Shown: positions 2,377 to 36,869 of the stretch, piece by piece
How the letters are laid out: each line of letters begins with the position of its first letter
How positions within the stretch are numbered: position 1 is the stretch's first letter
Virus record (IMG/VR): IMGVR_UViG_3300008120_000397
Length of the DNA stretch: 37,918 bases
Source of the DNA: a virus
Reading direction: 5' to 3' (one strand)
Notes under the pieces: model-generated
Databases searched by the model: none
Told to the model about the DNA's origin: nothing
Seen by the model: the letters and a program-made list of their open reading frames with translations, nothing else
Translations under genes and position numbers: made by a program

Positions 2377-3033
2377 TCAAGCGGTTTTCAGCGCCATCAG
2401 CCTATCAAGCCCGATGGCCACCTCAAACACCATGCCGTCGGGCCAATCCGTCCGCTCGGAGCATCCCGCCACCTCTAGGCCCTGAATGTGCCAGTCCACC
2501 GTCCGTCGGCTGTAATGCGGCAGGTCATCAGCCGGGGCAGCCTCGCCGCCAAAGCGCGCGGTCAGGGCATCCAGCGCCGCGCCGATGTAGTCCGCCTTGG
2601 TGTCAGGCCGGCAGAATAGCTGGAACTCCTGTTGCCAAAACTCCCGCAGGCGCAGCTTGGTGGCGCGCATGGTCTCGCCGTGCGCTTCGTCCCGGAAGGA
2701 CTTCCCGGCTTGCCAAAGGCACACCGGCAGGCGCTTCATGCGCTGCGCTTGCTGGGGAAACAGGGCGCCAAGCGCCGCAAACGTGCCAGCCGTAGTCTCA
2801 GGCCGCAAATATCCGCGATCAGTGCCGAGAAGCTCAAACCCGGCCTTGATATGCCCGCCAAGATGCTCGGCAGGCGTAAGGATTGGCGTCTCGACCCGGA
2901 GCATAGTCACGGCAGGGTTAAGCGCCTGCCAAGCGTCCCGCACAATCACGGCAATCAGCCGGATCAGCGCGTCGCGTTCTTCGATTTCGCGCTCAGTCCA
3001 AAGGACGGTCGCATTGCCGAATAGGGGTATCAT
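2377..3033 (-). CDS. Stand-alone class II (IIa, Gly/His-type) aminoacyl-tRNA-synthetase-like catalytic core with no anticodon-binding domain
   Basis: 218 aa. Motif-1-like LRVETPILTP, then YLRPETTAGTF, motif 2 GKSFRDE...LREFWQQEFQLF and motif 3 EVAIGLDRLMAL. A strong SD (aaaggag) lies 6 nt upstream of the ATG. It is the last gene of the early operon. Confidence 0.6.
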   Translation of the reverse strand: MIPLFGNATVLWTEREIEERDALIRLIAVIVRDAWQALNPAVTMLRVETPILTPAEHLGGHIKAGFELLGTDRGYLRPETTAGTFAALGALFPQQAQRMKRLPVCLWQAGKSFRDEAHGETMRATKLRLREFWQQEFQLFCRPDTKADYIGAALDALTARFGGEAAPADDLPHYSRRTVDWHIQGLEVAGCSERTDWPDGMVFEVAIGLDRLMALKTA

Positions 3034-5416: not shown

Positions 5417-7432
5417 TTAGACTGCCCAAATGACATCATAATGCACCCCGATTTTACCCTTTCGCTCCAGCCCCTCTATGGCGCGGTTAAATGCTGTTTT
5501 CTTTGTGTCTTGCTTATCTGCGGTTGAGCGGGCGTAAAATTCTTCCCGCCATGCGTGTTTTGTTGTGGCAGCCTTCACGCCTGATTGCGCGGCTTGATAA
5601 GGCACTTCAACGGGCCGCAATGCCATCACATTTTCCAGGATGCGCAGGGCCATGGCCTCGCCATTGGTGAGGCTTGCGCGGGCTTCCTGGGCCATCGTCT
5701 CGGCTGGGGTCACGATGCAGCTTGTGACCGGCTTGCCGCGATGATTGGTGCCGAGGTCAATGCGTTCTAGGCTGAAGGTCCAAGCCCCGTCAATCTCAAG
5801 CTCGCGTTGCTTGGTCACGCGGGCGGTGGATGGGCTATTGGCGTCGGGGCGGCTTATCTCGATCTCGGTGTCAGTGGCGGCGCGTAGCAGGCTATGTCCC
5901 CGCGCGCCTTGGGCTTGGTCCTTGCCTGAATGGTGTATCCAGGCCACATGCGCGCCGGTTGCCTGCCGAATCCGGTCGCTATTCATGACCAAAGAGCCCA
6001 TATCTTCCGGGGCGTTCTCGTTGCCCCCGGCCATGGCGCGGGAAAGGGTATCCATCACCACAAGGGCCACATTCCAGCCCATCTTGGCAGCGGCTTCCTG
6101 AATGGCCGCGATTAACCGGGACGTGTCCGCCTCTGGGTTCAGCAAGTCCAAGGCGACCGGGATAATGGCAAAGGGGATCGGGGCGCCTTCCACCCCGTAA
6201 TGCTTTGCCCATGCTGCCACGCGGTTACGGATGCCGTGGCTACCTTCCAAAGCGCAATAGATCACCCCACCTTGGGCTACCTCTCGCCCGTTCCAGGGCT
6301 TGCCCGTGGCCACATGCAGCGCTAGGTCGCAGGCAAAGAACGTCTTGCCGCAGTTTGACGGGCCATAGAAGACTGACATTGCGGCCCGGATCAGCAAGCC
6401 CTCAACAAAATCATCTCCGGTTAAGGCGGGTTCGACATCTTGGAAATAGACCAACGGCAGGCCGGTGCCGGGCGCGTCGGGGGCTACCTTCTCCACCTCA
6501 ATCTGCGGCGGCTCCGGGTCAGGTTCTGCGCTCCAATGGTCCGGCGCATGGTCGCGCGGCGGCGGTTCATCAGCGCGCGGCATGTATTCCTCGACAATGG
6601 TCCGCCGGATCATGGGGGCTGGCGCGGCGCGCGGCTTGGCCATGCCAGCGCGAAACGCGGCGCCTAGGGTTTTCTGCGCTGCCGGGTAATCCTCGCAGCG
6701 TGAGGCTATCCCGGCCAATGCGGACGCGAGCGCATGAAGCGCCGGGCCTTCTGCCAATTCGCCGGCTGCGACTAGGCCGCCGATCGAGAATGCCGCGCGA
6801 TTGAGCGTGTCATGCTTGGCGCCGTCCGGGGCGCTCATGATCGCCTGGCACTCGTTGTCCAAGGCTTGCAGGCCGTATCGGGTGCCGTCGCCAGATTGGC
6901 GGGGCGGGCTTGGCTGGCGCGGCGCTATGGGCTGCGCTGGCGCGGCGGGCGGGTCTATCAGATCCAACAACCACGCGGGCGCATCGGCAATAGTGGCGGG
7001 GTCAACCACGTCATAGCCATCGCTTGGCGGCGCAATGATGTAGCCGCCGGTCCCGCGAACATCCACGCCCGGCCCGACGCGGGACGCGCTGTTGCGGATC
7101 GCCCGACCGGCAGGCATGGCGAAAAGCAGGTGAACGCCGCCGCTCCGGGTCCGGTGTCGGCGCGTCTGGGGCAGGCGCGCTTCATGCGCTGCCAGCCATT
7201 CCAGGCCTTGGGCGCCGTTTTTGCAATCCAGGTCCAACACGAAAAACCCGGACGCCTCGCCCGTGGGGATGCCGATCATCGCGGCATTGCGGAAGCTGCG
7301 CCGGATTGTCTCCGGGTCGCGTGTCGCATCGCGAAAGCCGTGCGCCGTCATCGGGCGCTTGTGTTCATCGCACGGGAAAACGGGCAGGCCCATTTCTTCC
7401 GCCAGCCATTGGGCGGACGCGGCGAGGGTCAT
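5417..7432 (-). CDS. Bifunctional prim-pol / RepA-like (AAA_25) replicative helicase
   Basis: The N-terminal prim-pol motifs are FFVLDLDCKNG and TRSGGVHLLF. The C-terminal RecA-like domain has Walker A GPSNCGKT and Walker B VALVVMDTL. The ATG at 7432 forms an ATGA overlap with the upstream ORF. Confidence 0.85.
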   Translation of the reverse strand: MTLAASAQWLAEEMGLPVFPCDEHKRPMTAHGFRDATRDPETIRRSFRNAAMIGIPTGEASGFFVLDLDCKNGAQGLEWLAAHEARLPQTRRHRTRSGGVHLLFAMPAGRAIRNSASRVGPGVDVRGTGGYIIAPPSDGYDVVDPATIADAPAWLLDLIDPPAAPAQPIAPRQPSPPRQSGDGTRYGLQALDNECQAIMSAPDGAKHDTLNRAAFSIGGLVAAGELAEGPALHALASALAGIASRCEDYPAAQKTLGAAFRAGMAKPRAAPAPMIRRTIVEEYMPRADEPPPRDHAPDHWSAEPDPEPPQIEVEKVAPDAPGTGLPLVYFQDVEPALTGDDFVEGLLIRAAMSVFYGPSNCGKTFFACDLALHVATGKPWNGREVAQGGVIYCALEGSHGIRNRVAAWAKHYGVEGAPIPFAIIPVALDLLNPEADTSRLIAAIQEAAAKMGWNVALVVMDTLSRAMAGGNENAPEDMGSLVMNSDRIRQATGAHVAWIHHSGKDQAQGARGHSLLRAATDTEIEISRPDANSPSTARVTKQRELEIDGAWTFSLERIDLGTNHRGKPVTSCIVTPAETMAQEARASLTNGEAMALRILENVMALRPVEVPYQAAQSGVKAATTKHAWREEFYARSTADKQDTKKTAFNRAIEGLERKGKIGVHYDVIWAV

Positions 7433-7611
7433 TTTATCTGCTTCGCCTTCCATGTCTCGAAATGCGCCGCCCGTTCCGCGTCTTCCACCGGATCAGGCTC
7501 GCGCTCTTGCAGCGTTTCAAACACGCGCTTGACCCATTGCGTCACTTCGCTATGCGGCTCCGGGCCGAAGTCCAGCGTTGTCATGGGCGGAGGGTAGGGC
7601 GGGGCGGTCAT
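7429..7611 (-). CDS. Hypothetical protein (60 aa)
   Basis: ATGA overlaps are present at both ends. The protein is acidic and helical. Confidence 0.5.
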   Translation of the reverse strand: MTAPPYPPPMTTLDFGPEPHSEVTQWVKRVFETLQEREPDPVEDAERAAHFETWKAKQIK

Positions 7612-9823: not shown

Positions 9824-9942
9824 GGAGCCTGCGCCCCCAGCGCCCGCAACGCTTCCGCCGCATCAGCGCGCGTCGGGAACGGGCGGCCATGGAAGGCGCC
9901 AAGCCCTACCAGATACCACCAGCCGGAAATGCACTTGATCAT
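9820..9942 (-). CDS. Micro-ORF (40 aa)
   Basis: MIKCISGWWYLVGLGAFHGRPFPTRADAAEALRALGAQAP. There is a TAATG overlap with the stop of the sigma-like gene and an ATGA overlap with the next ORF. Confidence 0.4.
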   Translation of the reverse strand: MIKCISGWWYLVGLGAFHGRPFPTRADAAEALRALGAQAP

Positions 9943-10571
9943 TACATCATCTCCAACATCGCGCGCTTTGCGTCTTCATATTTGGGCGAGTTCAGCTTGT
10001 GCTTTAGCCGCCATTCCACCCTATGCAAAATCTGCCGCACCCGCTCGCGCGTCACTCCGAAATGCTTGGCGGTTGCCTCAAGCGTGGAAGGCTCGCCGCC
10101 TTCCAATCCGTAGTAATGCTTTACAACCGCAATGCCGCGCGCGTCGCTTTTGCCGTCCATAGTCTTCATCGACTCAAGGGCGACCATCAGCGAGTCAACC
10201 GCTTCTTTCACGATAAAGCTGCGCTCAGGATCATAGGCGATCGAAGGCGGCGCCGTGGCCATCAATGCCGGCAGGCTCTCGGCATCAACGTCGCGCGTGA
10301 CGCGGTTTGTTTGCAGCGCGCGGCGCAAAAATGGCGCCGGGAATAAATCTTCTGGCAACCGCTTTAGGGCATACCCTATGCGGACAATGCTATCTCGCAA
10401 TTCGCCGCTTGGCGTGTATGGCGCTAATTTCAGGTTGAGATAAAGCCCGACTGTGGTGTTGTTCACGCCAGATGCCCGCGCCAATTCAATCGCGGTGCTG
10501 AAGCCCGCTTGATCCATTGCGCGAAGCATCACCGCATTCTTGACGGTGACGATTACCCGAATGTCTTTCAT
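9942..10571 (-). CDS. Sigma-70 region-4-containing transcription factor (phage sigma-like)
   Basis: The C-terminus EPSTLEATAKHFGVTRERVRQILHRVEWRLKH matches the sigma-70 region 4.2 HTH. There is an additional N-terminal HTH (FSTAIELARASGVNNTTVGLYL). A TGATG overlap couples it to gcrA. Confidence 0.55.
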   Translation of the reverse strand: MKDIRVIVTVKNAVMLRAMDQAGFSTAIELARASGVNNTTVGLYLNLKLAPYTPSGELRDSIVRIGYALKRLPEDLFPAPFLRRALQTNRVTRDVDAESLPALMATAPPSIAYDPERSFIVKEAVDSLMVALESMKTMDGKSDARGIAVVKHYYGLEGGEPSTLEATAKHFGVTRERVRQILHRVEWRLKHKLNSPKYEDAKRAMLEMM

Positions 10572-11266
10572 CACGCCCACCTAGCCGGGCCAGGATTGCC
10601 CAAGTCTTTGTTTGTGCCGATGTACGCGGCGCGGTAATGCGCCAAACAATACGGCGAAGCGCAATTCTGACCCCTGGCGTTGGCAATGACCGGCTCAGAA
10701 CAGAAGCGCAGCGGTTCATCATCGCCGCTTACCACCATCTTGCACTGCTTCTCTGAAAAGACCCGGCGCTGATGCAACGCTTGAAGCGGATCAGCGCCGG
10801 GCAAGTTAGCGCCGGGCGGAGGAAAGGACGCCCGGCCACCACGCGCAGAGGGAGGCGCTGCGCTGGTTTTTGCGGCGCGCTGGACAGGGGATGTCCTCTT
10901 TTGTTGCGCGCCGCTCAGCCGGGCACGATGCTCGGCTGAACCCTTTTTAGACACAAGGCCAAGATGCACTGCCCGATATCGTATAGACGCCGGGCTGCGG
11001 TCAAGCTTCTGGCCAATCTGATCAACGTTAAGAAAACCGCCGTAAAGCTGCGTCAGCCACGCGTCTTCCTCTTCCGTCCAAGGCCGCGTGATAGTCGCAA
11101 TGGGCGACACGCGCGGCGCCAGCTTCAAGCGATGCACCCGGCCAATGATGCTGTTCTTGGTGGCGCACATGCGCTGCGCGATGTCCGTCCCGGTATGGCC
11201 TGCATCCCAAAGCGCGCGCAATTGCGCGTCGCGATCTGGCGTCCAAACGCCATTATGCTGGTTCAT
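10571..11266 (-). CDS. gcrA: GcrA-family cell-cycle regulator homologue
   Basis: The N-terminus WTPDRDAQLRALWDAGHTGTDIAQRM...KNSIIGRVHRLKL and the C-terminus CKMVV...FCSEP...SPYCLAHYRAAY match the GcrA N- and C-terminal signatures. A second Myb-like repeat WTEEEDAWLTQLY is inserted. Confidence 0.85.
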   Translation of the reverse strand: MNQHNGVWTPDRDAQLRALWDAGHTGTDIAQRMCATKNSIIGRVHRLKLAPRVSPIATITRPWTEEEDAWLTQLYGGFLNVDQIGQKLDRSPASIRYRAVHLGLVSKKGSAEHRARLSGAQQKRTSPVQRAAKTSAAPPSARGGRASFPPPGANLPGADPLQALHQRRVFSEKQCKMVVSGDDEPLRFCSEPVIANARGQNCASPYCLAHYRAAYIGTNKDLGNPGPARWA

Positions 11267-11529
11267 GCTGTCCTCTTTCTGCAACGTTCGCACATGCGCT
11301 GGAATTTGCTTTTTGCTTGGAAATCATCACGGCACATCAGGCAGGCGCGCAAAATAGTGTGCGGCGCCGGCCCAAAGCATTCACCCCCCGCAATGGCGCG
11401 CGTGTTTTTAATGCGGCGCTCGATCTTGTCCCATGGCATGTTTTGACCCCGCAACCGCCATACAAGGGCATCCTCCGATGGCGTCAAGCGATCTTGATTG
11501 GTCGCGATTTCGCGCCAGAAGCTACCCAC
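11263..11529 (-). CDS. Putative DNA-binding protein (Myb-like HTH plus C-terminal CxxC...CxxC)
   Basis: A GTG at 11529 lies 7 nt after a GGAGG SD. Motifs are LTPSEDALVWRLRGQNMPWDKIERRI and CLMCRDDF...MCERCRK. The ORF-track ATG at 11574 would overlap the Cro-like gene by 53 nt. Confidence 0.5.
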   Translation of the reverse strand: MGSFWREIATNQDRLTPSEDALVWRLRGQNMPWDKIERRIKNTRAIAGGECFGPAPHTILRACLMCRDDFQAKSKFQRMCERCRKRTA

Positions 11530-11725
11530 GGGCCGGCCTCCATTCCAGCGCCACCGCCAGCGCGCCAGGCGCAACGCGGCGCCGGAGCATGGCGCGCAGC
11601 CGGGCGTGATGCTTGTGGGGGACGCCTTTGCGGGTCCACATGTAAACGGCCTTTTCGCTCGATCCGAGGCGTTCGGCCAGGTGCTTCCGCCCGCCGGCGC
11701 GGGCTATGAGGTCTGAAATGGTCAT
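11522..11725 (-). CDS. Cro/YdaS-like HTH regulator, first gene of the early minus-strand operon
   Basis: 67 aa. The HTH pattern is LAERLGSSEKAVYMWTRKGVP. It lies directly downstream of the divergent promoter region. Confidence 0.65.
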   Translation of the reverse strand: MTISDLIARAGGRKHLAERLGSSEKAVYMWTRKGVPHKHHARLRAMLRRRVAPGALAVALEWRPARG

Positions 11726-11872: not shown

Positions 11873-12238
11873 ATGCTCAATCTTCTGCCAATTCAACCGC
11901 CCGAACCGCCCGCGCAGCATGAAGCGCTGGTTACGCTGGCAGGCTATCGCACCCGCTTGGAAAAGTGCCCGAATGACCGGAAAGGCAACTGGCACGAAGC
12001 CGCGACCCGCGCATGGGCTGACATGCTGCAATTTGAACACATGGTGTCGCAGCTTCTGGCAATCAGCGCCGCCGCTCCCAGCCAAGACGCATCCGAGGCG
12101 ATTGACTACGCGCTTGATCAGCTTGTGGAAGCCGCCGGCACCCTGACCAATGAGGTTGAGCGCAAGGCGGAAGATGGCGCCGCGAACGGCGCCTTTTACC
12201 GGGCGATTGATGCCGCGAACGCGCGCCGGGATTTCTGA
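11873..12238 (+). CDS. Hypothetical protein (121 aa)
   Basis: This is the first ORF of the plus-strand operon, with SD gaggga upstream. I recognised no motif. Confidence 0.6.
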   Translation: MLNLLPIQPPEPPAQHEALVTLAGYRTRLEKCPNDRKGNWHEAATRAWADMLQFEHMVSQLLAISAAAPSQDASEAIDYALDQLVEAAGTLTNEVERKAEDGAANGAFYRAIDAANARRDF

Positions 12239-12239
12239 C

Positions 12240-12488
12240 ATGACGCCGGATCATGTCTTTATTGTCGCTGCGCTACATGCACAGCGCATCCTTGATGCCC
12301 GCCATTTTGAAGCATCTGCGGCGCGGTATGACGGCTTCGGCGATACCGACCGGGCCGAACAGTGCCGCGATAATGCCGCGCAATGCCGCGCGCAAGCTGC
12401 GGCCATTGAGGCGCTATTAAGGGCGAGCGGCGCGCAAGTGCTGATCCCGGATGTCGGGCAGCTATCACTTTTTGGAGATGGACAATGA
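12240..12488 (+). CDS. Hypothetical protein (82 aa)
   Basis: The ATG lies 1 nt after the previous stop, and the stop overlaps the next start (ATGA). Confidence 0.55.
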
Positions 12489-13267
12489 CCAAGGAAGAAA
12501 TCGCCGCCGTATTGGCGGAGCATAAGCTATGGCTTGAAAGCAAAGGCGGAAAGCGCGCCAACCTTGCCGACGCCAACCTTGCCGACGCCAACCTTGTCGG
12601 CGCCAACCTTAGCGGCGCCAACCTTGTCGGCGCCAACCTTGGCGGCGCCGACCTTGGCGGCGCCAACCTTGCCGACGCCGTCCTTGCCGACGCCAACCTT
12701 GTCGGCGCCAACCTTGCCGACGCCAACCTTGGCGGCGCCTACCTTGTCGGCGCCAACCTTGCCGACGCCGTCCTTGGCGGCGCCGACCTTGGCGGCGCCA
12801 ACCTTGCCGACGCCGTCCTTGTCGGCGCCAACCTTGGCGGCGCCAACCTTGGCGGCGCCAACCTCGGCGACGCCAACCTTGGCGGCGCCGACCTTGGCGA
12901 CGCCAACCTTGGCGGCGCCTACCTTGTCGGCGCCGACCTTGTCGGCGCCGACCTTGGCGGCGCCAACCTTGCCGACGCCGTCCTTGTCGGCGCCAACCTT
13001 GGCGGCGCCTACCTTGTCGGCGCCAAGATCAACGACAAGACCGCCATCGGCATTCTGCGCCGCGCCACGCGGTCAGATAGTTATGAGTTTTTCCTGTGGC
13101 ATTGCAAGGAAGGCTATTTCATCAAAGCTGGTTGCCGCTTTCTGGATATGGAAGCCGCGCGCCAGCATTGGACAAACACGCGGCAAGGCACCGCGCTTGG
13201 CGATGAAAGCCTGGACATTCTGGATTTCTTTGACGCCGCAATTAAGCGTCAAGGCGGTGCAGCATGA
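12485..13267 (+). CDS. Pentapeptide-repeat protein (31 consecutive A(N/D/V/Y)L(x)(G/D) units) with a unique C-terminal domain
   Basis: 260 aa. The tract 12557-13021 is an uninterrupted 15-nt periodic repeat (gccaaccttgNcgRc). It is followed by about 80 aa of non-repetitive sequence ([36 protein letters not shown]...). Confidence 0.85.
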
Positions 13268-14091
13268 CCGCCGCTAACCAAATCGCCGCCGAGCTGCGGG
13301 CCGGCATTTACCTTGATCTGCCCGACGCCGATTACCGCGCGACCAAGGCGGTATCGTGCAGCGTCCTAAAGCGGTTTGCAGAGGCTCCAGCAAAGGCGCT
13401 GGTGCCGTCCAAAGACAGCGCAGCTATGAATGCCGGGCGGCTAATCCATAGCGCCTTGTTGGAACCTCACAAGTTTGACGCGCGCTATGCCCGCACCATG
13501 CTTGAGCGGCGCGGCACGAAGGACTGGAAAGAGGAAGAGGCAGCGTCTGGAAAGACGCTGCTAAAGGTGGCCGAGTTTGACGAACTGGCGACCATCCGAG
13601 ACGCGGTAATGGCGCACCCTACGGCGCGCGAATTGCTGGCGCCTGGGCTGGAGCCGGAAGCGTCTGTATTCTGGCAAAACGATGCGACTGGCCTGCTTTG
13701 CCGGGGGCGTGTGGATGGCCTGCGCCGTGATCAGCGCATTATTGTGGACCTAAAAACCACTGTTGATGCCAGCCCGCCCGAGTTTGCCAAAAGCGCCGGC
13801 AATTACCGCCACCATTGGCAGGAAGCATTTTACCGGCATGGCGTGAAGGCCGCGCCTGGGGGCTTTGAAGCTGACCGCTTCATATTTATTGCGCTGGAGC
13901 GCGAGCCGCCATTCTTGATCGGTATCTATGAATTGTCGCCTTCTGCCGTAGCGCAGGGCGAGCGCGAAGTCATGCGCGCGTTGCACGAATACGCCGAGTG
14001 CGAGCGCACAGGCATATGGCCCGGCTATGCGCCGGAAATCGTCATGGTTGATTTGCCCATGTGGGCTATGGAGGAGGAGTTTGTCCAATGA
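13264..14091 (+). CDS. PD-(D/E)XK exonuclease (exonuclease VIII / DUF3799-like)
   Basis: GRVDGL...RIIVDLKTT forms the D...(D/E)xK core, and QEAFY is the QxxxY motif typical of RecB-family phage exonucleases. Confidence 0.7.
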   Translation: MTAANQIAAELRAGIYLDLPDADYRATKAVSCSVLKRFAEAPAKALVPSKDSAAMNAGRLIHSALLEPHKFDARYARTMLERRGTKDWKEEEAASGKTLLKVAEFDELATIRDAVMAHPTARELLAPGLEPEASVFWQNDATGLLCRGRVDGLRRDQRIIVDLKTTVDASPPEFAKSAGNYRHHWQEAFYRHGVKAAPGGFEADRFIFIALEREPPFLIGIYELSPSAVAQGEREVMRALHEYAECERTGIWPGYAPEIVMVDLPMWAMEEEFVQ

Positions 14092-14666
14092 TTGACTTGC
14101 GCGGCACGATCAAGCCAAAATCTGATCAGCTAAACGCCGATGATCTTATTGGCGGGCCGGTCACAATCCGCATTACCGGCGTGGCTGTTGGCGAGGGTGA
14201 ACAACCGGTTTCCATTTCCTTTGACGGGGACGGCGGCAAGCCGTTCAAGCCGGGGAAATCCATGCGGCGCGTTTTGGTGAACCTGTGGGGACCGGACGGC
14301 GCCGCTTATATCGGGCGGTCTCTGACGATTTATCGGGATGAGCAAGTGGTTTTTGGCGGCGTGGAGGTTGGCGGTATCCGCATCTCTCACATGAGCCACC
14401 TTCAGCGCGAAACTACAATGGCACTGACCGCCACCAAGGCCAAGCGCAAGCCGTTCACCGTGCGGCCTTTGGTTGTGGAAAAGCCCGCCGATAAGGCTGC
14501 GATTGCGGTTGATGCGTTGCTGGCGCGCATTGCCGCCGGCGAGGATGTGACCGGCGATGCCAAAGTTGCCGAGCAGCGCGCCTGGCTGGCGAAAAACCGC
14601 CCTGAATTGGCCGAAAAGATCAATGCAGCCCTTTCCGAACCCGCCGCCGAGGAGATCGCACAATGA
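14088..14666 (+). CDS. Hypothetical protein (192 aa); possible partner of the exonuclease
   Basis: ATGA overlaps are present at both ends. The N-terminal half looks beta-rich and the C-terminus is Ala/Lys-rich and helical. The suggested function rests on position only. Confidence 0.55.
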   Translation: MIDLRGTIKPKSDQLNADDLIGGPVTIRITGVAVGEGEQPVSISFDGDGGKPFKPGKSMRRVLVNLWGPDGAAYIGRSLTIYRDEQVVFGGVEVGGIRISHMSHLQRETTMALTATKAKRKPFTVRPLVVEKPADKAAIAVDALLARIAAGEDVTGDAKVAEQRAWLAKNRPELAEKINAALSEPAAEEIAQ

Positions 14667-15472
14667 GCGAAGGAGCCAAAACCATGAAAATATCAATCAT
14701 GCAAATCACGCCAGATCTTGCGGCGGAATTTCTTAAGCGCAACACTAGCAATCGCGCAATTAAGAAATCAAAGATAAAAAAATATGCCGATGATCTGCGG
14801 CGCGGCAATTGGAAGCTCACGCACCAAGGCGTTGCCATATCGCCAAGCGGTCGGCTTTTGGATGGTCAACATCGCCTTTCGGCAATTGTTCAATCTGGAA
14901 TTGCGGCGCAAATGGTCGTTGCGCTTGATGTGAATGAAGACGCTTATGAGGTCATGGATCGTGGCGTGGCGCGCAGCGTTTCAGAAGCGACGGGGATACC
15001 AAAAAAAGTTATAGAGCCGTGCGGTTATATTTGGCGCTTGCACGAAACTGGCAGCGTAGAAGGGCACGATATTAAAAAGATTTTGAATGTTTTTAATGAT
15101 CAAATAAGTGATCTTCACGCGGCGGCGGGGAATACACCAAAAGCAAGATCGTCTGCCGGGATTAAGGCCGCAGTAATTTTGCGTCTAAAGCAAAATCCAG
15201 ATCGCCATTATGCAGACATTCTTGATCAGTGGCGCGCGTTTATAGTGTCAGATTTTGACGCAATGTGGCCGTCAGTAAAAGCTTTTTACCGGCAAATTAT
15301 TGATGAACCGCAAAGAGGAAACGGCGGGCAAAATCAAAAAGACAGGGCTGTAAGGGCTTGGATTGCTTTTGATCCACACCGAAAAAATATCAGCAAGATC
15401 ATTGTTCGAGATTATGAAACGTCAATTCAAGAAATGCGCGATGTTTGGCAGCCATCATGGGTGCAACAATGA
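14663..15472 (+). CDS. ParB/Srx-superfamily protein with DGQHR motif
   Basis: The motif is GRLLDGQHRLSAIVQSG, preceded by NRAIKKSKIKKYADDLRRGNW. The gene is visibly AT-richer than its neighbours. Confidence 0.7.
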   Translation: MSEGAKTMKISIMQITPDLAAEFLKRNTSNRAIKKSKIKKYADDLRRGNWKLTHQGVAISPSGRLLDGQHRLSAIVQSGIAAQMVVALDVNEDAYEVMDRGVARSVSEATGIPKKVIEPCGYIWRLHETGSVEGHDIKKILNVFNDQISDLHAAAGNTPKARSSAGIKAAVILRLKQNPDRHYADILDQWRAFIVSDFDAMWPSVKAFYRQIIDEPQRGNGGQNQKDRAVRAWIAFDPHRKNISKIIVRDYETSIQEMRDVWQPSWVQQ

Positions 15473-28902: not shown

Positions 28903-29871
28903 TTACGACGCGTCAATGAGGATGCCTTGCAGGCTCCGATTGGAGCAAACAAGCTGGCCCTGCCAGAACATCGGGATCACAACCGCGTCCTGATTAATAG
29001 AGACCTTTTCGTCGTCAACCGTCCAATTCGCGTCACGATGCGCGATCAATTCCAAATAGTTGGTATTGAGGAAATACATCCTCTCCGCCGTCTTGCCAAA
29101 ATTGGTGTTGTCATCAAAGATCACGTCCGAATCCACATATTTCAGGGACCGGAAGCCGGCATTGCCTTCATCAGCTGAGGCATAGCGCTGCAAGTCTTGC
29201 AGGCTTTCCCAGTAGGCGCTGAAGAAATCGTGAGTTGACACGATCAGGTCAGGCTTGTCGCCACCACGGACGCAAGACAGATAAAGCGCGTTCATGTCGC
29301 CCTTGATCGTGCTTTTGGTCCAAGTGTTGGTGCCACTGATTTCGCGGAACTGGTTACGCCAGAAAGTGTAGGTCGCGCTATCAATCCCGCCGACGGTGCC
29401 TTGACCGTTCGTCTGGATGATCAGCGCAAGCCCGCCAAGCTGGTTTGCCAGGGCGCCAGACGAATACAGGTCAACCGCCATGTTATTCGCCGCCGTGCGC
29501 TTGGCGTTCTGAATGCGCGCTTCAGCCAAGTCAATCAGTTTGCTGGAACCGGCATTCATGCGAAGCTCGCGGCCAGAAGCGGTAATGTGAACCGCCGCCT
29601 GCACCCAATCATACTTCGCAGCCGACACAACATCGGAAGCGGAGATGTTCAGCGCATCATAACCAGAATAGCGCTGATAGGTGCCGTTCTCCTGATAATC
29701 CAGGGGACGGACGATTTCATATCCGCCATCAAGCACGGTGCGGACACGGCCCCGGCGAGAAAGCCGGTTGTAGAGCGCGTTGTGCTTGCTGACGTTATCG
29801 GAGATTTCCGAGGGATGGTTGCGGAGGGTCGTCGTGACCATTTCCGTAAATGTAGCGTTCGGGGACGGCAT
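28903..29871 (-). CDS. Major capsid protein (HK97 fold, podovirus type)
   Basis: 322 aa. It follows the scaffold gene and precedes the decoration gene and a strong terminator. The sequence has the typical flavour (…YLSCVRGGDKPDLIVSTHDFFSAYWESLQ…). Confidence 0.8.
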   Translation of the reverse strand: MPSPNATFTEMVTTTLRNHPSEISDNVSKHNALYNRLSRRGRVRTVLDGGYEIVRPLDYQENGTYQRYSGYDALNISASDVVSAAKYDWVQAAVHITASGRELRMNAGSSKLIDLAEARIQNAKRTAANNMAVDLYSSGALANQLGGLALIIQTNGQGTVGGIDSATYTFWRNQFREISGTNTWTKSTIKGDMNALYLSCVRGGDKPDLIVSTHDFFSAYWESLQDLQRYASADEGNAGFRSLKYVDSDVIFDDNTNFGKTAERMYFLNTNYLELIAHRDANWTVDDEKVSINQDAVVIPMFWQGQLVCSNRSLQGILIDAS

Positions 29872-34529: not shown

Positions 34530-36869
34530 TCAATTCAGAGTGGTTTCAACGCCAATGGCGCGGCCATCATTGCCACGCACAACGCGTTTCGGCGCCATCA
34601 TCGCCTGGGCAAGCTGCGCCAGCGCTTGCGCTTGCATCATGGCGGCTTGCGCCTGTTGCTCGGCCTGCGCCGCCAATGTCTGGTTCAATGCGGCCATTGC
34701 CGCCGCTAATTCGCGCATCTGTGCCTCATTCTCTTCAAGCAAGGCTTCACGGTCAGGCAGTAGCGCATCCTTGCGGGCTTCGACCCGCGCCGCTTGGCTA
34801 TCTTGCAATCGGGCAGCTTCGCTTTGCGCCTTCAATGCCACCTCGGCTTCGCGAATGGCAATCTCGCGCTCTTTGATCTGCGCTTCCATCGCCAAGCGCT
34901 GCGCTTCAAGCGCCAGCTTTTCTTGCTCAAGCTGCGCCTTGGCTTGCGCTTCGGCCTGCTTGGCTTGCATCTCCATCGCGGCGCGTTGCTGCTCGGCTTG
35001 CGCTTCTGCCGCCGCACGCTGCGCTTCTGCCGCCGCACCCTGATCCTGTTGTGGCGCCGGTTGCGCGGCAATCTTGCCCATGCGCTCTAGCGCGTCTTCC
35101 GCTTGGCGCCCTAGCTTGAAATTGCGCGCGAAGGCAGTCAGCAAATCCGCCACAACATCCATCGGCATAGCGCCAGCCTGCACCGCCGGCCCCACCGCCT
35201 GGATGAACCCGCCAAAGCCTTGCACAAACTCTGCCGCGTTTGTCTTCAACCGCGCAACATCAGCCTGCACCGTGCTGTCGGTTTCAATGTCCACCCGATA
35301 GCCGCGCATAGCATCGGAGCGAAGCACTTGCAGCACGTCATCCCATGAAGGGACAGTTAGTACTTGCTCAATCTCAGGCGGCACCGGCTGCCCGGATTGT
35401 TGCGCCATCATCGCCGCCTGTTGCGCCATCATCTTCTGTTGCGCTTGCGGCAAATCAACGCCGGTCATCAGGCCAAGCGTCTCAGGCTCAAATTTCTCGC
35501 CAATCAATTCGGCCATCAACCGCACGGCATCGCGCGCCATGCGTTGCACCTCGGCCTGCCGGTCCTGAATGCGGATCGAACCAAACTGGGCTTTGATCTG
35601 CTGCGCCGTGGCAGTCTCGCTCGCCACACTGGCGCCGCGCACAATGTCAGATAGGCCCGTGATTTCGTAAATGGTGGCCTTCAACGCCTCGCGGTGCTGC
35701 ATAAGCTGGATGATGACAGAAACCAGCGTTTCAAGCGGCACGGGCCAGATTGCCTTGTCAAGCCCGCGCTCGGCAAACTGCATCGCGTTCTGAATTGGGA
35801 CAAATTCACCATCTTGGGCGCGGGCTAGTTTCTCAAATTCCTCAATATCTGAAGCATAGACACCACGATAGCGGCATTGCTCTACCAGCTTGTCAATCCG
35901 CCGCGTGACGTGATCAAGCTCCTCTGCCTGATCCTTGTAAAGCGAATACGGAACAATCGGCACAAGGCTTCCACTATCCACCACATCATAAATCGGACGC
36001 GGCATTGGCCAGAAGTCTTGCAAACCAAGCGGATCATCCACACGCTTTAGGATTTTGGACGGCAATGATGGCGCGATGAAAAGAACCTCGCGCTCCTCCT
36101 TATCCCAAAGCTCATATACCGTGCCGCGCTTGAAAACGTCCGGCACGTCGCGCGGGTCAGAATTGCGCGCCCGCGCGTCATCGGTCACAATGTCAAGCGG
36201 CATGGTGGCGCCAATGTTGCCAAAGCGGTCTTTCAATTCATCGCGCGTTAGGCGATGCTCGAAGCCGATCCACGGCACTTCTTCCCACTTGCGGCCTGGC
36301 CCAATGATGAAATCATGCCAGTCCACATGCTCAACGCAAACCTTCTGAAACACCAAGCGCGGCGCGGCGGGCTGCATGGCCTCGCCATCTTCCGCGTATT
36401 CTTCCGCCGCTTCCTGTTGTTCTTCCTCCGTTTCCTCAAAGGAAGGCTCGTAGCGCACACGCAACACGCCGCGCCCGGCCAGCACGCTGTCAAACACCGC
36501 CGCGCGCATGTTGCCGCCGAAATCATAAGCGTCGAAGGAATAGCTTAGGCTGCGCTCCAGCACCTGCGCGGCAACCTTGCCAGTCGCATCAGCATCACCA
36601 AAGCGGCGCCGCACGTCCGGGATTGGCGTGGAATTGTAGATGGCGGGCAACGTGATCTGCGTGTTTGCAAACAGGATATTGAATTTCTTGCCTTGGTTGT
36701 TCTTGCTGTCGCCACGGTAGCGCTCACGCGCCTCGCCAGCGCCCTTGCGCCAGTCGGCTTCATTCTTCCTCGCCAGCGCCACGCTGTCCAGCCATAGACG
36801 CGCAAGCCCGGCATCATCCTTGCCAGCGTCTTCGCGGTCTTCATAGGCCTCGGTGGCGCTGTCGCTCAT
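34530..36869 (-). CDS. Portal protein with a long C-terminal coiled-coil (barrel-like) extension
   Basis: 779 aa. The N-terminal signature is KFNILFANTQITLPAIYNSTPIPDVRRRF. The C-terminal about 150 aa is an Ala/Gln/Glu-rich helix (AAEAQRAAAEAQAEQQRAAMEMQAKQAEAQ...). Confidence 0.8.
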   Translation of the reverse strand: MSDSATEAYEDREDAGKDDAGLARLWLDSVALARKNEADWRKGAGEARERYRGDSKNNQGKKFNILFANTQITLPAIYNSTPIPDVRRRFGDADATGKVAAQVLERSLSYSFDAYDFGGNMRAAVFDSVLAGRGVLRVRYEPSFEETEEEQQEAAEEYAEDGEAMQPAAPRLVFQKVCVEHVDWHDFIIGPGRKWEEVPWIGFEHRLTRDELKDRFGNIGATMPLDIVTDDARARNSDPRDVPDVFKRGTVYELWDKEEREVLFIAPSLPSKILKRVDDPLGLQDFWPMPRPIYDVVDSGSLVPIVPYSLYKDQAEELDHVTRRIDKLVEQCRYRGVYASDIEEFEKLARAQDGEFVPIQNAMQFAERGLDKAIWPVPLETLVSVIIQLMQHREALKATIYEITGLSDIVRGASVASETATAQQIKAQFGSIRIQDRQAEVQRMARDAVRLMAELIGEKFEPETLGLMTGVDLPQAQQKMMAQQAAMMAQQSGQPVPPEIEQVLTVPSWDDVLQVLRSDAMRGYRVDIETDSTVQADVARLKTNAAEFVQGFGGFIQAVGPAVQAGAMPMDVVADLLTAFARNFKLGRQAEDALERMGKIAAQPAPQQDQGAAAEAQRAAAEAQAEQQRAAMEMQAKQAEAQAKAQLEQEKLALEAQRLAMEAQIKEREIAIREAEVALKAQSEAARLQDSQAARVEARKDALLPDREALLEENEAQMRELAAAMAALNQTLAAQAEQQAQAAMMQAQALAQLAQAMMAPKRVVRGNDGRAIGVETTLN

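Follow-up and report, generated by a model that had tools for sequence, protein, structure and literature searches.

Pentapeptide-repeat proteins (PRPs) are very often annotated in phages. Here we analyze one of them, encoded at positions 12485-13267 (plus strand) of a phage genome, the IMG/VR record IMGVR_UViG_3300008120_000397, whose full 37,918 nucleotides are called the window below. This 260-aa protein has three parts: a short N-terminal cap, a tract of 31 pentapeptides and a C-terminal domain (C-domain) of 81 residues. The C-domain is the conserved element: it displays an enzyme-like or ligand-site-like conservation, occurs in hundreds of protein clusters and is undescribed in four libraries. 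The variable element is the rod formed by the pentapeptides, in both length and surface. With these two elements identified, the question shifts from DNA mimicry, the role proposed in a first-pass annotation of the sequence, to the partner of the C-domain and the reason for the changes in the rod. We read the PRP as an early phage host-interference protein that would combine a conserved C-terminal effector or binding domain with a fast-evolving solenoid, and give this reading a probability of about 0.45. It is built on the anatomy of the protein, its conservation pattern, its mode of evolution and its genomic position, all of which are shown below.

A regular pentapeptide tract and a conserved C-terminal domain

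The repeat tract (12557-13021, residues 25-179) consists of 31 in-register 15-nt units without indels, each encoding one pentapeptide of the type A-(N/D/V/Y)-L-(G/V/A/S)-(G/D), and is thus uninterrupted as initially described. Tandem Repeats Finder delineates it at 12555-13026 (period 15, 31.5 copies, 85% matches, 0% indels), and all 30 matches of a two-unit pattern in the window fall within the tract, versus 0 in 100 shuffles. In the unit GCC-NNC-CTT-GNC-GRC, 9 of 15 positions never vary and another two are constant in 30 of 31 units. Common variation is limited to unit positions 4, 5, 11 and 14, that is, to codon position 1 or 2 of three outward-facing residues; third codon positions are invariant except for one CTC, and every common difference between units alters an amino acid. 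Pairwise, units are about 86% identical: the first-pass annotation was right about the regularity of the 15-nt unit but overstated it as "almost invariant". Twelve unit types follow each other in the order AABCBDEAFBADGAHEAIDDJDKDGLEAIDG, where a four-unit block (EAID) is duplicated 11 units apart; the array has no higher-order periodicity beyond this block.

A Pfam search clearly matched the pentapeptide family PF00805 (E=1.3e-42, 143.3 bits versus a cut-off of 20.2). In the full-length AlphaFold2 (AF2) model, an N-terminal helix (residues 3-17) is followed by one strand per five residues over positions 26-181 and then by the C-domain, and Foldseek searches with this model gave a probability of 1.00 to many solved PRPs. 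The tract is therefore modeled as a right-handed quadrilateral beta-helix of about 7.75 coils, in agreement with the eight or so coils, and the MfpA/Qnr-like length, first anticipated. The N-terminal cap (12485-12556, residues 1-24) comprises a segment of 19 letters, helical in the AF2 model, followed by GGKRA; phrog_7713 matches residues 1-67. H13 and W16 are invariant in the cap, and G21, G22 and R24 nearly so. Two out-of-frame open reading frames (ORFs) over the tract (12534-13277, plus strand; 12259-12726, minus strand) were rejected as by-products of the repeat, the conserved flanking domains being present in the PRP frame only.

JGI and ENA assemblies contain the same 260-aa protein, without any change, on 17 contigs. 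Four of the corresponding loci were retrieved; over 4.9-6.8 kb their identity to the window is 99.97-100%, and the PRP gene shows zero nucleotide differences. The longest exact internal repeat of the tract, 67 nt, is below typical read length and below k = 141.

The C-domain (13022-13264, residues 180-260) had been described as a flank of the tract. Its presence stands, but the view of it as an appendage was wrong: it is the defining, near-invariant part of a large family. Across 148 representatives sharing at most 50% mutual identity, R196, D198, F202, A215-G216-C217-R218, A225, H228-W229, R233, T236, G239 and E241 are 95-100% conserved, and T232 and L238 are conserved at 86% and 93%, respectively. 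The family signature can be written RSDGY...AGCR.F[TS]..EA..HW..TR.GT.LG.E[TS]. The window protein has every near-invariant residue (R196, D198, F202, AGCR at 215-218, H228, W229, T232, R233, T236, L238, G239 and E241); its residue 199 (13079-13081), in the RSDGY motif, is Ser, versus Gly in 91% of the superfamily. At the DNA level, the C-domain is the best-conserved stretch of the region, with 95.7% identity between the window and the related locus L037, versus about 77% in the genes that precede it. Such a density of invariant polar residues, within some 60 positions, suggests a ligand-binding or active site rather than a simple dimerization helix.

The window C-domain has no match in Pfam (even at E<=10), NCBIfam, PADLOC or PHROGs, and the C-domain of a distant member matched one unannotated PHROG, phrog_20532. 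AF2 modeling from a 34-sequence alignment (predicted local distance difference test (pLDDT) 74.7, predicted template modeling score 0.64) yields a topology in which four to five strands precede two helices; the full-length model likewise shows four strands and two helices. Foldseek searches with the domain gave a best E of 0.49 against the PDB, and only family members in BFVD. The best PDB fold matches, ribosomal eS4 and PUR-alpha repeats (E=0.5-0.9, probability <=0.16), were treated as noise, as was an eL39 motif, RRHWRKTRLG, returned by a PDB sequence profile (whole-sequence E of 0.0027, i-Evalues of 1.2 and 36).

When the last 87 residues were used as query, 107 proteins with a common three-part layout were collected: an N-terminal helix (with GGKRA after it), a variable number of very regular pentapeptides, and a C-domain with 61-95% identity. 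Lengths among these homologues step by 5 aa. Among 1.84 billion representative proteins searched with a profile of this domain alone, 557 clusters matched at E<=1e-3, of which 228 also at E<=1e-10. Among the 150 matches listed out of these 557 clusters, the domain is C-terminal in nearly all; it is preceded by at least four pentapeptide units in 86 and by hexapeptide-like GNAxVxG repeats in 28, a few have CxDCxD repeats or unrelated N-terminal regions, and several are nearly domain-only (73-90 aa). Examples are P0142, P0153, P0225 and P0242 for the hexapeptide type, P0207 and P0253 for the Cys-rich type (CxDCxD/CSYCS), and P0146, P0248 and P0219 for the stand-alone form. The fusion partner of the C-domain is interchangeable and is usually a repeat of some kind. 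The family is essentially restricted to phages and phage-like contigs: among representative genomes of 185,579 species, only two metagenome-assembled genome (MAG) contigs carry the domain.

Concerted evolution and length change of the arrays

Synonymous codon choice is almost uniform inside each of at least 20 arrays and differs from one array to another, with codon sets such as GCC..CTT, GCG..TTG, GCC..TTG, GCG..CTC and GCC..CTG. Uniformity within arrays combined with differences between them indicates concerted evolution and excludes a conserved DNA motif. Such a motif had been considered when the first three homologues were all found to use GCC-ANC-CTT-GNC-SGC, and was abandoned when 20 more arrays showed lineage-specific codon sets.

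Homogenization of synonymous positions is accompanied by diversity at the surface. When differences present in at least two units were counted between units of related arrays (19 arrays), 86 affected outward codons nonsynonymously, 7 were synonymous and 1 fell in an inward Ala/Leu codon. Rough site counting gives a neutral expectation of about 1.6 nonsynonymous differences per synonymous one, and we interpret the excess as diversifying selection on the solenoid surface. As the variable codons AAC, GAC, TAC and GTC resemble the product of adenine mutagenesis, diversification by a diversity-generating retroelement was also considered; it was rejected, since the window holds no second copy of the repeat that could act as template and no reverse-transcriptase domain in scans of its large unannotated ORFs and with PHROGs.

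Family members have a homogeneous repeat array directly 5' of the C-domain, and the number of units ranges from about 2 to 46 across the family (about 2 to about 36 in close homologues). Homologues whose C-domains are 90-95% identical carry 2-10 units of entirely different composition. As only proteins of 105-152 aa came out of the first protein search, the 31 repeats of the window looked like an outlier. This view was rejected: IMG/VR members (L013, L015, L016, L017, L022 and L024) carry roughly 20-33 units, IMG/VR contigs and cultured phages together span 20-46, and the short set partly reflects a bias of short contigs. In 18 of the 107 homologues the sequence starts inside the tract at a contig end, which indicates that short-read data under-sample long arrays. 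An array of 31 units is ordinary for the family.

Direct evidence of length change comes from cultured phages of Caulobacter. The product annotated as "pentapeptide repeat family protein" in phages of the Riverwalk cluster (gp016 of RW, RLK and KcrB, gp015 of GB2A) is a true homologue sharing the C-domain: it was matched with superfamily members by tblastn at E values of about 1e-6 to 1e-7, and its translation shows the RSDGYEF and AGCRTFT motifs. The homologue of RW, RLK and KcrB has 356 aa and 46 units, that of GB2A 21 units, and the GB2A array corresponds to an exact in-frame deletion of 375 bp, or 25 units, relative to RLK, from which GB2A is otherwise separated by only a few SNPs. Comparison of GB2A with RW has been reported to reveal two single-nucleotide polymorphisms, two extra bases and one deletion, of 375 bp (PMC11053796 section 3.5). 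Identity of the prefix and suffix around the deletion overlaps by 134 nt, as expected for recombination between repeats. Together with codon homogenization, this deletion bears out the concerted evolution and proneness to length change that had been predicted from the window alone, and the span of array lengths answers the proposed check for repeat-number polymorphism in related genomes.

These Caulobacter proteins resemble the window protein in their long, homogeneous and acidic array (46 units, net charge -14), and differ from it in a distinct N-terminal region of about 40 aa and in a divergent C-domain, where HV replaces HW and the TRxGTPLGDE motif is degenerate. The phages are also of a different type, with 62-kb genomes bearing terminal repeats and no recombination module annotated near the gene. 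In RLK, the gene is found among small hypothetical genes close behind the terminal repeat, at about 6.5 kb from the end of the genome, in what is presumed to be an early region. Since natural alleles of 46 and 21 repeats exist in cultured phages of Caulobacter vibrioides, the roles of both the C-domain and the rod are testable in a model bacterium.

Genomic setting of the gene

The PRP gene begins with an ATG preceded by a GGAG (12474-12477) located 7 nt upstream. Its start overlaps the stop codon of orf82 in an ATGA (12485-12488) and its own stop overlaps the start of the downstream exonuclease gene in another (13264-13267); with such overlaps at both ends, the gene lies in a translationally coupled operon. 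It is the third gene of an operon diverging from a Cro/YdaS-like regulator (11522-11725, minus strand; phrog_409, phrog_35 and phrog_8008, with a weak precomputed Pfam match to YdaS_toxin). All on the plus strand, the genes are, in order, orf121 (11873-12238), orf82 (12240-12488), the PRP gene, a PDDEXK exonuclease of the DUF3799 family (13264-14091), orf192 (14088-14666) and a gene for a 269-aa protein (14663-15472). The exonuclease is RecE/exonuclease VIII-like (PF12684, 1.1e-32; phrog_412, 4.4e-82); the first-pass annotation had placed a RecB-family exonuclease here, directly downstream. A match of the PRP to phrog_28766 had raised a tail-fiber or structural role; this was dismissed, as the match comes from the repeats only and the gene lies in the early operon, distant from head and tail genes.

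Part of this arrangement is conserved in related metagenomic phages. The block made of the Cro-like gene and the divergent orf121, PRP and orf82 genes is kept in about 15 loci. Homologues of orf121, 64-84% identical, lie immediately 5' of the PRP gene in 15 loci (tblastn); orf121 opens the operon and counts as one of two conserved partners of the PRP gene; it matched nothing in Pfam, PHROG, NCBIfam or PADLOC. The second partner, orf82, is predicted as a gene in the identical loci too and is kept at 50-67% identity in 13 loci (tblastn), before or after the PRP gene, the two genes swapping order among related loci. In two loci, an extra 104-aa gene (PF27050, Phage_P22_Y8K6) is inserted between orf82 and the PRP gene (L037 292-606, L038 878-1192).

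Downstream of the block, three types of recombination module are found: DUF3799 exonuclease and orf192 (the window and L012), Sipho_Gp157 and RecT (L007, L008, L016, L019 and L037-L039), and Gp157, AAA_24 and SSB (L017, L022 and L024). Despite these swaps, the PRP gene lies at or almost at the head of the module in at least 12 related loci, so that its position there, first noted in the window, holds more widely. An interim view that the link with recombination genes was not conserved was reversed when the downstream ORFs were identified as Gp157, RecT, AAA_24 and SSB. No recognizable recombinase was found downstream of the PRP gene in L001, L015 and distant members, and the synteny with recombination modules comes from a single phage lineage.

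Homology between the window and five loci (L009 and L036-L039) gives an idea of how modules are exchanged. At the nucleotide level it spans the PRP C-domain and ends at about 13300, 36 nt inside the downstream gene, which in L037-L039 encodes Sipho_Gp157 and not the DUF3799 exonuclease. A module-exchange junction thus seems to lie within the first 12 or so downstream codons. The exonuclease and orf192 recur as a pair in L012, at 78% and 95% identity. The orf192 product (phrog_11517, 7.6e-58; no Pfam or NCBIfam match; L012 counterpart at 6201-6869, 95% identical) travels with the DUF3799 exonuclease in the slot expected for an annealing protein, for which it is a candidate by inference only. 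The 269-aa protein that follows (phrog_5931, no Pfam match) has an LLDGQHRL motif that, from its sequence, recalls ParB/DGQHR-type N-terminal domains.

Elsewhere in the window, all on the minus strand, are genes for a terminase (292-1635), a primase/helicase (5417-7453), a sigma-like and a GcrA-like regulator (9942-11293), a major head protein (28903-29871) and a portal (34530-36869). The GcrA-like regulator and the other protein, which has a sigma-70 region-4-like domain, adjoin the Cro-like gene. GcrA is an alphaproteobacterial cell-cycle regulator; the presence here of a GcrA-like protein, together with Caulobacter-infecting phages that bear PRP homologues, suggests an alphaproteobacterial host. 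The host search in genomes matched only two MAG contigs. Two otherwise identical contigs, L003 and L005 (407-459), carry 53 bp more than the window at 9943/9944. The added stretch is window 10107-10159 in reverse complement, which may be a genuine small inverted duplication or a chimera of the assembly. A 218-aa ORF (2377-3033, minus strand) matches the class II aminoacyl-tRNA synthetase core (PF00587, E=1.7e-7, 31.9 bits versus a cut-off of 29.3), an unusual find in a 38-kb phage; it has no PHROG match.

Possible functions and relation to known systems

Under the reading we favor, the PRP would be expressed together with the leading genes of the rightward early operon, in translational coupling with the recombination module. 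The short N-terminal helix would cap the beta-helix. The length and outward residues of the solenoid turn over very fast, through in-frame unequal recombination or slippage and under what we interpret as diversifying selection. The C-domain (about 65-80 residues) would carry the conserved activity, either the binding of a conserved ligand or partner or a catalysis, which the polar constellation R196, D198, C217, R218, H228, W229, T232, R233, T236 and E241 may underlie, and would engage a conserved target. The solenoid could then serve as a rigid, fast-evolving rod, either occupying or masking a factor of host DNA processing or defense, or evading recognition by such a factor; in the window phage only, the uniformly acidic rod could serve as a DNA-like decoy. 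Position in an early operon, restriction to phages and coupling to recombination genes together point to a protein of host takeover or anti-defense. Host interference and the nature of its target, like early expression, are inferred.

Several observations weigh against this reading. Early expression is deduced from position only, and a consensus-based scan for promoters and terminators was uninformative, its output being at shuffle level. The loss of 25 repeats is tolerated in a cultured phage, which suggests that the rod may matter little for function. The nonsynonymous excess is a count between units of related arrays and not a formal dN/dS, some of the short arrays may be collapsed, as the 18 of 107 homologues that begin inside the tract at a contig end remind us, and the AF2 models are of moderate confidence (pLDDT of about 75). 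For the C-domain, searches of Pfam, NCBIfam, PADLOC and PHROGs, by PDB profile and with Foldseek detected no relative whose function or fold is known, and the literature searched holds no functional study of a phage PRP and no characterized homologue.

A more specific proposal, which we hold as tentative and rather doubtful, is that the C-domain is a new phage effector or ligand-binding module (e.g. an inhibitor or sponge acting on a conserved host component of defense or DNA repair), and the solenoids a phage-encoded variable-surface system, where repeats gained and lost in frame, with a diversifying surface, would allow the phage population to keep retuning or disguising an anti-defense protein. 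This would be a repeat-based counterpart of hypervariable receptor-binding proteins, with an intracellular target. Should an anti-defense or anti-nuclease activity be true, the family would form a new and abundant class in the phage counter-defense repertoire.

The charge and length of the tract bear on the alternatives that involve DNA mimicry. In the window, the 155 aa of the tract include 15 Asp but neither Lys, Arg nor Glu, for a net charge of -15 and an isoelectric point of 4.05, and the Asp residues are distributed over all four faces of the solenoid. The 89 complete close homologues divide into 37 with a negative tract charge, 20 with a neutral tract and 32 with a positive one, and average -0.01 per unit. 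The charge reaches +7 in L013 and is -14 in RLK gp016. Unit numbers modulo 4 are evenly distributed (24/25/22/18 in the same 89 homologues), so that whole coils are not preferred, and tracts of 2-3 units cannot form a helix. An anionic rod is a fair description of the protein of the window phage; acidity is not a property of the family, any more than a fixed length, and model cut-offs for Qnr and MfpA were missed (see below). If the family has one conserved function, as suggested by its conserved position and C-domain, that function cannot depend on a fixed-length acidic surface.

One such alternative is a Gam/Abc-like protector: the acidic solenoid, maybe dimerized by the C-domain, would plug the DNA channel of RecBCD/AddAB so that phage recombination can work. 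In phage lambda, gam adjoins the recombination genes, upstream of bet-exo, and the PRP gene comparably precedes three module types in at least 12 loci and is coupled through ATGA to the first gene of the module; the net charges of the window and RLK tracts (-15 and -14) also fit. However, a synteny drawn from one lineage may be inherited gene order, and the members cited above as devoid of a recognizable recombinase break it. Tract charge is as often positive as negative in close homologues, some tracts have just 2-3 units, and searches of Pfam and of the PDB and BFVD with Foldseek revealed nothing that resembles Gam, Abc2, gp5.9, Ocr or ArdA in sequence or fold, all matches being PRPs or family members. 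We consider such a protector unlikely.

An Ocr/ArdA-like DNA mimic that blocks restriction-modification, bacteriophage exclusion (BREX) or other DNA-sensing defenses early in infection seems to us improbable. The location in an early operon, the acidic rod devoid of basic residues over 155 aa and a hypervariable surface suited to an arms race are in its favor, as is the status of PRPs as an established DNA-mimic scaffold (PMC10886550 section 4.3). But acidity is not conserved and repeat number shows no preferred length or phase; the PRP matches no PADLOC, Pfam or anti-defense family, and BREX was not inhibited in a test of two other PRPs, McbG and QnrB (PMC7261183).

We regard as quite improbable a role of the Qnr/MfpA type, in which the protein would regulate or inhibit the DNA gyrase or topoisomerase IV of the host. 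The fold is common to both, coil number is similar, the Foldseek probability is 1.0 to MfpA, QnrB1 and AlbG, and gyrase inhibitors are known from phages (PMC10886550 section 4.1). Scores nonetheless fall far under the cut-offs: 39.1 bits versus 240 for the NCBIfam Qnr model (NF033086), at most 45 bits versus 425-500 for all Qnr subfamily models, and 47.7 bits versus 360 for MfpA (NF000349). Loops A and B of Qnr, which are needed for gyrase protection, are absent from the 31 contiguous units, where there is no insertion. The nearest solved relatives, by both sequence and Foldseek, are consensus designs, Np275/276 and HetL rather than Qnr or MfpA, and neither length nor charge is conserved in the family.

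A role of the repeat as DNA, be it origin iterons, a recombination hotspot or a protein-binding array, with the ORF incidental, could be argued from the 31 near-identical 15-mers adjoining replication and recombination genes and from the GGCGCC palindromes that arise wherever one of the 21 GGC-ending units meets the sequence that follows; it is largely refuted and scarcely credible, for relatives keep the peptide pattern with different codons, length changes are all multiples of 15 nt that preserve the frame and the flanking domains, and the N- and C-terminal protein domains are strongly conserved. Finally, tandem repeats are hard to assemble, yet the chance of a collapse or expansion artefact is negligible, given an identical protein on 17 independent contigs from different samples and assemblers, the 67-nt limit on exact internal repeats, and cultured phages with arrays of 21 and 46 units.

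The PRP fold and the existence of phage PRPs are already known. What appears to be undescribed is the C-terminal domain and its association with several kinds of solenoid, as well as the existence of arrays that combine concerted evolution with a diversifying surface and an unstable length that changes in frame. Comparison with known systems places the protein as follows. With lambda Gam, T7 Ocr and ArdA it shares an early phage gene and an acidic, elongated product, but those proteins have fixed lengths and conserved charge patterns, unlike this family. With MfpA, Qnr, AlbG and McbG it shares a right-handed quadrilateral beta-helix, as modeled, of about eight coils and, in the window phage, a tract that is anionic by residue composition; it differs in that it ends in a beta/alpha domain of about 80 aa where they have a single dimerization helix, in being phage-borne in an early operon, in lacking the Qnr loops and in a charge and length that vary among its relatives. 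Np275/Np276, HetL and the consensus "beta1" solenoids, of the cyanobacterial PRP type, are the closest solved structures by sequence (E=1e-47 to 1e-26) and by Foldseek (1e-13 to 1e-12); they have very regular A(N/D)LxG repeats, and the match reflects this regularity only, as these proteins are devoid of the C-domain and their functions are unknown or unrelated (heterocyst differentiation). The type III effectors NleL and SopA, which gave weak matches here, differ in being secreted bacterial proteins of about 610 aa with an N-terminal solenoid and an unrelated HECT-like E3 ligase domain, and they are not known for repeat hypervariability. Like the window protein, however, they fuse a pentapeptide solenoid to a separate effector domain, and they provide a precedent for a solenoid acting as a targeting or scaffold module beside a catalytic domain.

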